Below are positions 8,504-15,795 of a stretch of DNA of 23,837 bases, piece after piece. The stretch's first letter is position 1, and each line of letters begins with the position of its first letter. The stretch lies in IMG/VR virus record IMGVR_UViG_2534681835_000037, positions 1 through 23,837 of that record. One strand, 5' to 3'. The notes beneath the pieces are model-generated. The model had not been told where the DNA came from. It searched no databases and saw nothing but the letters and a program-made list of their open reading frames with translations. The position numbers and the translations under genes were made by a program. The stretch is from a virus (Duplodnaviria > Heunggongvirae > Uroviricota > Caudoviricetes).

Positions 8504-9193
8504 ATGAGTTTGATTGATTTAAGAGATGAATACGAAGAAAGAGCAAGAGATATTATGGAATTGCTTTCTCTTGCGTCATCTTTAGAGGCTCAGACTCAGC
8601 AGTTAGATCAGCAAACGCATAAAGATGAAATAGAATCAAATACCCTTAGGGTTAACATTTTAAAATCATCCGTGCACATGATGCTGTACAATCAGGTTGA
8701 AAACACTGCCAGAGGATGCATTGAGTCAATTTATGACCATTTGCAAGATAATGAAGTAAATTACGCATCACTCAGGGAGAAATTCCAAGTAAATATCTTG
8801 CACCGTATCATTTCAGATAATGAATCGGGAAAATCTCTTTATCAAAAAATTGGTTCCGATATATCTAAAAGGATCATTTCAGCCTCATTAAACATACGTA
8901 AAGAATTCAATGGTAATGTTTGCAAGTCTGTATTGCACAAAATAACACAAGCTTACGGAATAACTGTTGCAAACTCACCAGAGTGTAGAAATGGTGTTGA
9001 CTTAGATTTACTTAAAGATATCAGAAATGAGCTGGCACATGGAAGTACCAGCTTTTCTAAAAAAGGTCAAATAGACCCTTTAGAAGAAGTCAAATCGAGG
9101 TCAGAAAGAATTGATCTATATTTGCGTTTATTAATCAACTCAACAGAAAATTATATTACCTCTAACGGGTATTTATCCCCTCAACATGTCTGA
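8504..9193 (+). CDS. HEPN-like domain protein (putative RNase), translationally linked to the DUF262 gene
   Basis: 229 aa; start 2 nt after the DUF262 stop; C-terminal R-x4-H motif (DIRNELAHG) typical of HEPN active sites in a largely helical protein. Assignment is from motif and context only. Confidence 0.55.
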   Translation: MSLIDLRDEYEERARDIMELLSLASSLEAQTQQLDQQTHKDEIESNTLRVNILKSSVHMMLYNQVENTARGCIESIYDHLQDNEVNYASLREKFQVNILHRIISDNESGKSLYQKIGSDISKRIISASLNIRKEFNGNVCKSVLHKITQAYGITVANSPECRNGVDLDLLKDIRNELAHGSTSFSKKGQIDPLEEVKSRSERIDLYLRLLINSTENYITSNGYLSPQHV

Positions 9194-10202
9194 TAAATGT
9201 TTCCCCTATTATCTGACCAATTATAGGGGGAACAGCATTTCCAATCATTGTCCCCAATTTTTGGAATGAAAAAGGCGTCTCCTTGTCAAGGAATTTATAA
9301 TCCATTGGAAAGGATTGCAAAATCGCAGCTTCACGCAAAGTTATGGCGCGATTTTGCTCAGGATGGCCAAATCGTCCATTTCCATATCCATAACACTGGG
9401 TAGTTATCGTAGGGCTAGTATCGTCCCAAACCATCCGTCCATAAACGCTTTTATAGGTAGCACCTGAATTCTTTTTATGACAGTCTGCTCTAATTTCTTC
9501 AGGCCAGTCATCCCACGTACCACCAGGTAAAGAATGCATGATTCGTTTAAGATTGATATCCATCAATTTAGGCGAACGATGCAAGGGATCGCTTTCCAGC
9601 TTCTCACCTGCCCCTACTTTTGGCAACCTACCAATAGCATCCTTAACAGTAACTTTACGGCTAACTTTTTTTTGATCAAGGCTGATCGGCCCCAATTGGG
9701 AACCAATTAGAATTAATCTACGTCTATTTTGAGGTAAGCCATACTCAGAACATCTTACAACGTCGTACCACAAATGATATCCAAGAGTCTTTAATGCACT
9801 AACAAACCCTTCAAAAACCTTATGGTTTCTAAGTTGAGGAACATTCTCCATCGTCACAAGCTCTGGCATGACATCACTTACAAGCCTTTGAAACTCATAT
9901 AACAAACGCCACTTTGTATCGTCTTTACGGCTATTTGGATTACGATACTTGGAAAACGGTTGGCAAGGAGCACATCCAGCAAGCAATCTAATATTTCCTT
10001 CCTTGAACATAGCAGACACATCGCAGGATTGCAGTTCTGTAACTGACTGATTAATGAACTGCGTTAAAGGATTATTGCTCTCAATAGCAAAACGGCAGGA
10101 TTCATCAATATCAATACCATGAGAAACCTCAATCCCGGCTTTTTTTAGCCCAAAAGTTAAGCCCCCCGCACCACAAAAAATGTCTACTGCCTGAATGTTC
10201 AC
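9162..10202 (-). CDS. DNA (cytosine-5)-methyltransferase
   Basis: 346 aa; canonical m5C MTase motifs in order: I FCGAGG, IV GCAPCQPFS, VI TMENV, VIII QNRRR; GTG start at 10202 with GGAG RBS; 3' end overlaps the HEPN gene 3' end by 32 bp (convergent). Confidence 0.85.
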   Translation of the reverse strand: MNIQAVDIFCGAGGLTFGLKKAGIEVSHGIDIDESCRFAIESNNPLTQFINQSVTELQSCDVSAMFKEGNIRLLAGCAPCQPFSKYRNPNSRKDDTKWRLLYEFQRLVSDVMPELVTMENVPQLRNHKVFEGFVSALKTLGYHLWYDVVRCSEYGLPQNRRRLILIGSQLGPISLDQKKVSRKVTVKDAIGRLPKVGAGEKLESDPLHRSPKLMDINLKRIMHSLPGGTWDDWPEEIRADCHKKNSGATYKSVYGRMVWDDTSPTITTQCYGYGNGRFGHPEQNRAITLREAAILQSFPMDYKFLDKETPFSFQKLGTMIGNAVPPIIGQIIGETFIRHVEGINTR

Positions 10203-10265
10203 AAGATTCTCCGTTACTTTATCCTGGTATTATATACACATAAAAGTTGGGAAAGTAGAACGATT

Positions 10266-10634
10266 TTACATAGAACTTAAGTCATTGTAGTAAATGAAAA
10301 ATGACAAGCAGCCATCAATAAACCCCATTGCTGTTTGCATCTCTTTCCGTATTGTTCCATCTGAACATTTCCGTTTTTTAGCAATAGCGCGTAATGAGAT
10401 ACCAATAACAAAGTGAGCAATGATCAACTCATACTCTTCGGGTTTATACTTTCGCAACCGAGCCACACAACCGTCTATCATGATACCTTCGTCATCATCA
10501 CACTGGAGACGTGACTTTTTACCGTGTGGTAAAAGCCCCTTGAAGCCTGCTGCTATCGGCTGCCAGTCCACACCACTGTTATCTGCTGCAGCCCAGGCCC
10601 CCCAACGATCTAAAACTTCGTACATATCACGCAT
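10266..10634 (-). CDS. Late-gene antiterminator Q (QuuD-type)
   Basis: 122 aa; MRDMYEVLDRWGAWAA...IAAGFKGLL...Q.C.DD...C.ARL resembles my recollection of E. coli prophage Q proteins such as QuuD; lies between the replication genes and the late region. Confidence 0.7.
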   Translation of the reverse strand: MRDMYEVLDRWGAWAAADNSGVDWQPIAAGFKGLLPHGKKSRLQCDDDEGIMIDGCVARLRKYKPEEYELIIAHFVIGISLRAIAKKRKCSDGTIRKEMQTAMGFIDGCLSFFIYYNDLSSM

Positions 10635-10891
10635 CAGCGCAGTACCTCCTGCACCAGTTTTTCAAACTTACCAACTCTGGTTTCCAGCTCTGCCACACAA
10701 TCCACCAGCTCATCCACCGCCTTTTGTGTGCGGTGTTTTGCCAGCAGCAGATCACGCAGCGCCGGAGTAAGCTGCTTGCGGAGCGTATCCTTTGCCACGC
10801 TCGTTTTTTCCATCTGTTCAGCACAACGAAGCATCTCCTGCGCCTGCCGACGAAGTTGTTCCGGTGAAACAGTGATTGCTCTGTTGTTCAA
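10634..10891 (-). CDS. Hypothetical protein, translationally coupled to Q (TGATG overlap)
   Basis: 85 aa predicted helical protein; stop overlaps the Q start, and its start overlaps the DnaB-like stop. Confidence 0.5.
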   Translation of the reverse strand: MNNRAITVSPEQLRRQAQEMLRCAEQMEKTSVAKDTLRKQLTPALRDLLLAKHRTQKAVDELVDCVAELETRVGKFEKLVQEVLR

Positions 10892-14674: not shown

Positions 14675-14865
14675 GGACGCACCTCCGCCGTAGTTACGTA
14701 TTTAACCGGGCTACCTTTCATTGAGATGGTTTCACACATCTCTGCCGCTTTCAGTTCCGCTGTTTTTCTGGATTTATAGCGACGGTGCCAGACAGATACA
14801 TCCGTGCGAACTGATACATCGTTTCTGTATTCCGTAGTGGAGATGATGATTTCGTAACTAATCAT
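14671..14865 (-). CDS. Hypothetical protein
   Basis: 64 aa; coupled by 4-bp overlaps to neighbours. Confidence 0.4.
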   Translation of the reverse strand: MISYEIIISTTEYRNDVSVRTDVSVWHRRYKSRKTAELKAAEMCETISMKGSPVKYVTTAEVRP

Positions 14866-15413
14866 GGGCGAACCTCCTTGTCAGAACCATTCAGCCTGGA
14901 ATCAACAAGTGCAGCGCCAAAAACAGCATCACCAACACGGTCGTACAGTTTGCTAGCCAGCGGAGATTCAACGGCCTTAAGCATTGGATAAAGCTGGCTT
15001 GTCCAGATTTGATGGATTTCACGCAAATGCAGGTATACGCCTCTGGCGTTTCGTGCGACAGCTGACATATCAACCGCGTCAGCACCAGATAAATTCTTCT
15101 CCATCTGGTTAAAGGCGTTGATGTATGCCTCTTTGAACCGGGCTGCACGTTTGCCAGTAAAGCCCATAGCAAGGAACGCGAAGCCATCGCGGGTGATTTG
15201 ATAGCAAGGTAGTTTGCGGCCTGTGCAATCGGTGTAATCACTGGGCTGAAAATTCAGCTCAGTGAATTCAACAGAGCACTCAAGCGTCTGGATTTTTTGA
15301 ATAACGTTTTTGTGCTGCTTGCAGAAATATTCGGCAACGGCCAAAGAAGAGGTAACAGCCTTCCCATGGATAACATCAATTTTAGGGTGAGTTTGGGTAG
15401 GGGTGGTTGCCAT
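14862..15413 (-). CDS. Phage regulatory protein, Rha family
   Basis: Rha-like N-terminal motif (KIDVIHGKAVTSSLAVAEYFCKQHKNVIQKIQTLE) begins right after the internal ATG at 15413, which has a GAGGA RBS. The ORF track extends the frame to 15710 (282 aa), but that extension has no family resemblance. Confidence 0.6.
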   Translation of the reverse strand: MATTPTQTHPKIDVIHGKAVTSSLAVAEYFCKQHKNVIQKIQTLECSVEFTELNFQPSDYTDCTGRKLPCYQITRDGFAFLAMGFTGKRAARFKEAYINAFNQMEKNLSGADAVDMSAVARNARGVYLHLREIHQIWTSQLYPMLKAVESPLASKLYDRVGDAVFGAALVDSRLNGSDKEVRP

Positions 15414-15795
15414 AGTGACATCCTCATGTGCGAATTTTGAAAACTCACCACATGGGACGCCAATCACAGAGGTGGTGAGACGTACAGGGTTGGCGTAACC
15501 GGTCGCACATGACCCCGGCGCATCTTTCGATGCCCCTGCACGCCCCACCATAATTTGGATGTGAGGAAACGTGCGCAAAAAAACCGCTGAAGCGCGGTTA
15601 TGCGCATGTGCGAATTTCAGGACGCCAATCCCGGCACCCGCTTTATAAGGTGCGGAGACAGTGTAACGTCCCGAAATTGCAGAATCAATATTTGGTCTTG
15701 AAATGATCATATAGCTGCTGATATCTTTAGAACTGTTCTTGGATGTTTCGGAGCCGTTTTATGCGAAACAGCTCCCCGTTATTGATGTTGAGTGA

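Follow-up and report, generated by a model that had tools for sequence, protein, structure and literature searches.

The closest described relatives of the locus considered here were recognized by computation. In the computational HEPN survey of Anantharaman, Makarova, Burroughs, Koonin and Aravind (2013, Biol Direct 8:15; PMC3710099), Table 1 lists a MAE_28990-type HEPN operon that also contains genes for a ParB/DUF262 protein and a DNA methylase. Two systems from Escherichia coli, both validated in the pangenome screen of Vassallo et al. (2022; PMC9519451), consist of similar parts. PD-T4-2, from strain ECOR65, pairs a DUF262 protein with a HEPN protein and defends the strain in which it is native against T4; HHpred matches its B protein to both PF18735 and PF18737. 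PD-lambda-5, from strain ECOR7, consists of a ParB/HEPN fusion and a methylase, is described as 'RM+Abi' and protects against phage; its study required a host with mrr deleted.

DUF262 domains are present in other defence proteins as well. NsnA joins a ParB-DUF262 domain to a DNA-binding 'ParBDB' domain, and NsnA-type ParB-DUF262 proteins have been proposed to be DNA sensors that drive RNase effectors (PMC12065111). In GmrSD, BrxU and SspE, the DUF262 domain is the NTPase/sensor and the DUF1524 domain does the cleavage (PMC10952713).

The window, i.e. the whole 23,837-nucleotide stretch of Caudoviricetes DNA that was analysed, carries a DUF262 gene, a HEPN gene and a cytosine methylase gene side by side at positions 7344–10202 (Table 1). 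The reading we favour, with roughly even confidence, is that the three form one mobile module of restriction-modification-like (R-M-like) logic, a methylation-linked anti-phage system with an RNase effector. Its kind is already known from computation; the HEPN protein is named in RefSeq, and the 2013 survey covers the operon type. The present analysis adds the slot in the E. coli prophage, the movement on Tn7-like and P2-like elements, the restriction to one methylase subfamily and the numerical estimates of co-evolution.

How does the locus compare with the described systems? With the MAE_28990-type operons of 2013 it shares the family, the R-x4-H motif and the DUF262 and methylase context, and nothing structural differs. 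These operons are known by computation alone, with no solved structure detectable by sequence; the literature searched holds no MAE_28990 family member with a tested function, and the family is named there only in the 2013 survey. PD-T4-2 and PD-lambda-5 were compared through PADLOC models and the HHpred tables of the paper (PMC9519451). PD-T4-2 is likewise a DUF262 and HEPN pair in E. coli, and the DUF262 protein of the window matches PD-T4-2_A. However, PD-T4-2 is smaller (both ORFs about 1.5 kb; a B model of 168 positions versus 229 residues here), and its components list no methylase, whereas the module is linked to one in 70 of 82 related loci and in 107 of 107 E. coli carriers. The PD-T4-2_B model does not match the HEPN protein of the window even at E up to 10; it weakly matches one Collinsella relative (0.0046). 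With the B component unmatched and a methylase linked, membership of PD-T4-2 fails. PD-lambda-5 has a single ParB-HEPN fusion protein and a Dam-like methylase (PF02086), whereas here the proteins are separate and the methylase is of the C5 type (PF00145); the PD-lambda-5 models are absent among the PADLOC matches listed for the DUF262 and HEPN proteins of the window. Having no fusion and another methylase class, the module does not belong to PD-lambda-5, which is analogous but not homologous to it.

Menshen (NsnABC; Millman et al., 2022; PMC12065111) resembles the module in its NsnA-like ParB-DUF262 protein and in the proposed route from a DNA sensor to an RNase effector, but it also has NsnB, an ABC ATPase (AAA_15/DUF3696), and the effector NsnC, neither of which adjoins the module; the flanking genes are those for HEPN, the C5 methylase, Q, a small hypothetical protein and iraM. 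The locus is thus not a Menshen system, NsnB and NsnC being absent. GmrSD, BrxU and SspE likewise have a DUF262 domain at the N terminus, with a nucleotide pocket of the DG(Q/S)QR type, but they carry a DUF1524 His-Me nuclease where the module has a separate HEPN effector, and the absence of a C-terminal DUF1524 sets the module outside this group. The linkage of the module to an m5C methylase implies a polarity opposite to that of modification-dependent restriction. PrrC of EcoprrI also ties a HEPN RNase to modification-based DNA defence; it is, however, an ABC-ATPase-HEPN fusion in a type I R-M operon, whereas the module is without such an ATPase and without hsd genes. Of a classical type II R-M system, the methylase and an R-M-like layout are present, and a known DNase fold is detected in neither partner. 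Assignment to the type III toxin-antitoxin or AbiF-like systems fails as well, as no tandem RNA repeats or structured RNA lie beside the HEPN gene. The PADLOC models recognize no complete known system at the module, and defence-system surveys may therefore undercount it.

The HEPN gene and its family

The original prediction described a helical, HEPN-like protein of 229 residues, with the sequence DIRNELAHG near its C terminus and a start codon 2 nt past the DUF262 stop. The open reading frame and its ATG start on the plus strand are as claimed, and so is the spacing, the TAA being followed by CT and then by the ATG at 8504. An AGGA lies 9 nt before this ATG, within the final DUF262 codons. 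DIRNELAHG occupies residues 172–180.

Table 1. Features of the module and its surroundings, in window coordinates
Feature	Position	Strand	Details and basis
Left boundary of the cargo slot, conserved	7200..7315	.	Sequence and terminator scan
NsnA-like ParB-DUF262 protein	7344..8501	+	385 aa; Pfam, PADLOC, 70 homologues
Junction DUF262/HEPN	8491..8506	+	AGGA 8491-8494, TAA 8499-8501, 2-nt gap, ATG 8504-8506; apparent translational coupling
MAE_28990-family HEPN protein, predicted RNase effector	8504..9193	+	229 aa; profile, alignment, model
Codons R174-N-E-L-A-H179, R-x4-H motif that marks HEPN active sites	9023..9040	+	Coordinates and invariance
C5 cytosine DNA methyltransferase	9162..10202	-	346 aa, GTG start, PCQ catalytic motif P79-C80-Q81

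Is the R-x4-H motif informative in itself? A scan of the whole protein finds R-x4-6-H once, with R174 encoded at 9023–9025 and H179 at 9038–9040. However, shuffled versions of the protein contain R-x4-H in 36% of cases (RNxxxH in 3%), and the motif alone is no better than chance. It is meaningful because R174, L177 and H179 are invariant in 122 homologues and because the protein has a Pfam match above the cut-off. That match, to PF18737 (MAE_28990/MAE_18760-like HEPN), scores 60.4 bits against a cut-off of 26.8 (E 3.8e-16) and runs end to end, over profile positions 5–209 of 211; a second match is to PF18735 (RiboL-PSP HEPN). The family alignment comprises 122 homologues at 18–90% identity, 122 of 122 of which match PF18737. 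Y62, N63, E66 and G137 are invariant in it together with the three motif residues, and conservation is 90% or higher at N138, N175, A178, G180 and F184.

The family is large. Clustered at 50% identity, it comprises at least 1,276 clusters in a profile search over 1.84 billion cluster representatives (E ≤ 1e-3), and the best 150 of these 1,276 are all stand-alone proteins of at most 264 residues, mostly about 200–260. In PHROGs the family is phrog_3846, without an assigned function. The RefSeq name for the protein of the window is 'MAE_28990/MAE_18760 family HEPN-like nuclease'.

The helical character claimed for the protein is borne out by an AlphaFold2 model built on the 122-sequence alignment, which is all-helical with a pLDDT of 96.5 and a pTM of 0.91; an earlier model from 16 close sequences had a pLDDT of 71. 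Structure prediction had been proposed as a check on the HEPN fold, and its outcome is divided: the helices are present, but Foldseek finds nothing significant for the model in the PDB. The sole Foldseek match in BFVD is one phage member of the protein's own family, and sequence searches of the PDB with shallow and deep HEPN family profiles give chance matches only. The structural support is consistent with a HEPN fold and is not decisive. The main grounds for calling the protein HEPN are its profile match and the invariance of the motif. These support the HEPN-like reading of 8504–9193, and by profile and alignment the gene is a genuine MAE_28990-family HEPN gene, in which the invariant RN-x3-H motif is intact.

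DUF262 partner, methylase and their linkage

The DUF262 protein matches PF03235 (the GmrSD N-terminal domain) at residues 69–206 (1.1e-25) and no other Pfam domain; there is no DUF1524/HNH, PD-(D/E)xK or other recognizable nuclease domain. A PDB sequence search finds it no relative. Its best PADLOC model is NsnA of Menshen (5.6e-46, 155 bits, positions 13–301 of 385), and the next, lower one is PD-T4-2_A (4.3e-27, 93 bits). It carries PDYQR at residues 75–79 and EIIDGSQR at 121–128, the latter a variant form of DGQQR, the motif of the nucleotide pocket. Across 70 DUF262 homologues, PDYQR and E-I-x-D-G-x-Q-R are kept, as are many residues of the C-terminal half. The DUF262 proteins of two relatives, plasmid L086 (2328–3389; E 6e-12) and P2-like phage L085 (140–1285; E 9e-7), match PDLC03418, a 'Type II restriction enzyme' model of PADLOC, which suggests that the source of this model already lists a DUF262-type protein as a type II restriction enzyme.

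The original prediction overlooked a convergent methylase gene that belongs to the same unit as the DUF262 and HEPN genes. The HEPN and methylase genes overlap by 32 nt at their 3' ends (9162–9193), and the methylase matches PF00145 at 9.5e-54 and PADLOC MTase_II at 1.6e-87. RefSeq names the two partners of the HEPN protein 'DUF262 domain-containing protein' and 'DNA cytosine methyltransferase'.

The linkage was followed in 82 related loci, 80 of them from one-genome-per-species contigs (23–37% HEPN identity) and two found by exact look-up, with neighbours classed by iterative profile searches; the 82 are not independent, 11 of them, for example, being near-identical Collinsella loci. In all 82 the DUF262 gene lies directly upstream of the HEPN gene on the same strand. 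In 77 of 82 the two genes are separated by -45 to +10 nt; most gaps fall between -4 and +6 nt, and the commonest are +2, -4 and +5. The pair has a neighbouring C5 methylase gene in 70 of 82, convergent (as in the window) in 43, downstream on the same strand in 14 and upstream of DUF262 in 13, and loci with a methylase span cyanobacteria, proteobacteria, Collinsella and Bacteroidota. Three of the 12 loci without an adjacent methylase are cut by contig ends, and nine have room for one yet carry none. These nine are cyanobacterial (L005, L008, L011, L016, L021, L027, L031, L032 and L040); a methylase of another type was sought beside them, but they are flanked by housekeeping genes (metH, acnB, glyS and one for a T2SS ATPase). 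Sister loci L023 and L033, from the same genera, do carry the methylase. No DUF262-HEPN fusion occurs among the 150 and 52 family members listed.

Co-evolution was assessed with identity matrices for 56 non-redundant triples. HEPN and DUF262 identities correlate at r = 0.96 (Mantel p = 0.001); the correlation of HEPN with the methylase is weaker, at r = 0.76, with a Spearman value of 0.23 for distant pairs. Judged from these alignments and gene orders, the HEPN gene is always translationally linked to, and co-evolving with, an NsnA-like ParB-DUF262 gene. The linked methylases have a mean identity of 55% over the 56 triples, and their target-recognition region, between motifs VIII and IX, is 74–86% conserved; they therefore appear to constitute one subfamily, probably with one specificity.

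Some part of the module occurs in 107 of the 5,426 complete E. coli genomes (about 2%), ST131 and O111 strains included, and 107 of 107 carry all three genes at full length. The allele of the window is found in 73 of these genomes and an 87%-identical allele in 34; the second allele also lies in the slot between Q and holin, on a different prophage backbone. Between the two alleles, dN/dS is 0.05 for DUF262, 0.06 for HEPN and 0.08 for the methylase, and all three genes are under strong purifying selection. The same triple is a cargo of a Tn7-like transposon in Pseudoalteromonas, sits between Q and holin in a Yersinia lambdoid prophage and lies beside gene A in the P2-like phage P24B2. The three genes move as a block. 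For IncF plasmids, only a DUF262-HEPN pair is listed. In P24B2, the methylase gene (L085 2021–3035, minus strand) is split over two reading frames near residue 227, with DUF262 and HEPN intact; the cause is a frameshift that made it a pseudogene or else an error in the sequence. If real, the split means that the pair is tolerated without the methylase.

A proposed methylation-linked mechanism and its rivals

How might the three products work together? The methylase would mark the DNA of the host. The DUF262 protein, with a predicted NTP-binding ParB/Srx fold and a DNA-binding C-terminal half, would bind DNA and read its methylation state and, upon meeting unmarked incoming DNA, would switch on its HEPN partner. 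The HEPN protein, which probably works as a dimer like known HEPN RNases, would then cut RNA (tRNA, rRNA or mRNA), so that translation stops and the infection is aborted. It is for the module as a whole that we infer RNase function, DNA sensing and a defence role. The more specific proposal, that a ParB/DUF262 NTPase reads a dedicated m5C mark and triggers a HEPN RNase rather than cutting DNA, in a cassette distributed over bacterial phyla at phage, transposon and chromosomal sites, is put forward tentatively and is rather doubtful. If true, it would represent R-M in logic and not in chemistry, a DNA mark of self and non-self coupled to an abortive effector that targets RNA; such methylation-based self-recognition, driving an RNase and not a DNase, would be both compact and widespread. 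Counter-evidence to the methylation-linked mechanism comes from the nine cyanobacterial pairs without an adjacent methylase, the apparent P24B2 frameshift, the weaker co-evolution of the methylase with the pair, the lack of DUF262-HEPN fusions among about 200 listed family members and the lack of a complete known system among the PADLOC matches. As the pair apparently exists without a linked methylase, strict self-toxicity on unmethylated DNA is argued against.

A different division of labour has been published for HEPN genes in R-M operons, the MAE_28990 family included (PMC3710099). Here the ParB/DUF262 protein would be the restriction DNase that attacks unmethylated DNA, and HEPN a back-up of the PrrC kind, a latent RNase that the DUF262 protein keeps inactive and that is freed only when a phage blocks restriction. 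The methylase beside convergent partner genes is indeed the classic type II R-M layout, and the DUF262 proteins of some relatives match PADLOC REase_II (E 6e-12). The DUF262 protein of the window, however, has no match to that model (PDLC03418), and of Pfam domains it shows PF03235 only, with no nuclease domain detected; in GmrSD, BrxU and SspE it is DUF1524 that cleaves, DUF262 being the NTPase/sensor (PMC10952713). Because no DNase domain is detectable and characterized DUF262 domains are NTPases or sensors, we regard such a back-up role as unlikely.

Could the methylase instead be a passenger? The DUF262 and HEPN proteins might then act as a PD-T4-2-like or type IV-like pair that senses some mark of the phage, for example one of its proteins or modified cytosines, with the accompanying gene an orphan or anti-restriction methylase. 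There are precedents, as PD-T4-2 acts as DUF262 plus HEPN without a methylase against T-even phages (PMC9519451) and modified cytosine is what the GmrSD/BrxU class of DUF262 enzymes recognizes (PMC10952713). The nine related loci without an adjacent methylase and the IncF plasmids, which list the pair alone, would also fit. Nevertheless, the methylase is present in 70 of 82 loci, in three gene orders and always from one conserved subfamily, and inheritance in E. coli is all-or-none. A sensor that attacks m5C would be suicidal beside an m5C methylase, and the HEPN protein of the window is unmatched by the PD-T4-2_B model. These points make a passenger methylase improbable, more so than the back-up role.

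Least probable of all is a module that mainly stabilizes the prophage by addiction, with HEPN as the toxin and the DUF262 protein, the methylase or both as the antidote: toxin-antitoxin pairs commonly have HEPN toxins (HepT/MNT is an example), R-M-like modules can serve as addiction elements and the module persists in a defective prophage, but the DUF262 protein (385 residues) exceeds HEPN (229 residues) in size and, unlike typical antitoxins, has conserved enzyme-like motifs, the analogous systems have been validated as phage defence, and neither RNA-antitoxin repeats (only an 18-nt chance repeat in 5800–10700) nor an Rfam match is found near the module.

The prophage slot and its surroundings

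A prophage of E. coli O111:H8 strain 8E matches the window at 100% identity. The prophage is lambdoid, with int/xis, repressor-type regulators, a DnaB-type helicase gene, antiterminator Q and a lysis cassette. The gene for the terminase large subunit is truncated to a pseudogene, and a second integrase gene directly adjoins it (L001 1–1857 left of the window; window 1–536). Beyond this truncated gene there are no structural genes; the prophage is defective, yet the three-gene module is intact, and purifying selection acts on it.

The module lies between Q (10266–10634, minus strand) and the lysis genes, on the strand opposite to the phage late genes, within an island of low GC content (37–40%, about 5500–10500) in DNA of roughly 50% GC. 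At the left boundary of the slot, a GC-rich hairpin (7219–7233) reads as a terminator on both strands and has its T-run on the minus strand. A perfect TATAAT at 7272–7277, upstream of DUF262 and with no good -35, is a candidate -10 element for a DUF262-HEPN operon. Before the GTG of the methylase there is a TATAAT (10234–10229, minus strand) and a GGAG, just past the Q stop codon. Under the mechanism favoured above, DUF262 and HEPN would probably be expressed in the lysogen, from their own promoter upstream of 7344. Late phage transcription en route to the lysis cassette would run antisense through both genes, which could therefore be silenced during the lytic growth of the prophage itself.

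The boundary sequence at 7200–7315 recurs, over 85–116 bp, before different opposite-strand cargo in mEp460, SfII and Stx2a phages. Judging by these sequences, the slot after antiterminator Q looks like a cargo hotspot, and the module occupies the site where Stx phages carry their toxin cargo. In Stx2a_1447 (L088), the boundary at 3001–3084 is followed by genes at 3133–4696 for a pair of proteins of 343 and 179 residues; in mEp460 (L084), the boundary at 3501–3614 is followed by a gene at 3657–4583 for a 308-residue protein. The slot cargo of these two phages has no significant PADLOC or Pfam match, and its genes may be uncharacterized defence genes. The Stx2a_1447 pair was considered as a PD-T4-2 system and rejected, having neither a PADLOC match nor a significant Pfam match.

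Other features of the window were also recorded. ARAGORN finds no tRNA genes in it, and there are no stx genes in the prophage. A NanS-p-like esterase gene at 3882–5853 (minus strand; DUF1737 and SASA; 'DUF6645' in RefSeq) has the position that such genes have in Stx phages, downstream of stx. In the low-GC island of the module, an IraM-like anti-adapter gene at 6127–6453 (plus strand; NCBIfam PRK09919, E 1.6e-42) encodes a product that would stabilize RpoS; the open reading frames at 6529–6819 and 6850–7047 have no family match. Rfam identifies a C4 antisense RNA (75 bits) and the isrK Hfq-binding sRNA (62 bits) at 15468–15555 and 15577–15653 (minus strand). Both lie within or beside a Rha-family regulator gene (14862–15710), and the element is an antirepressor control element of the P1/P7 type. 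In the early-left region, the gene at 20962–21606 (plus strand) is named in RefSeq as a dATP/dGTP pyrophosphohydrolase domain protein; its product could have a nucleotide-pool or counter-defence function.
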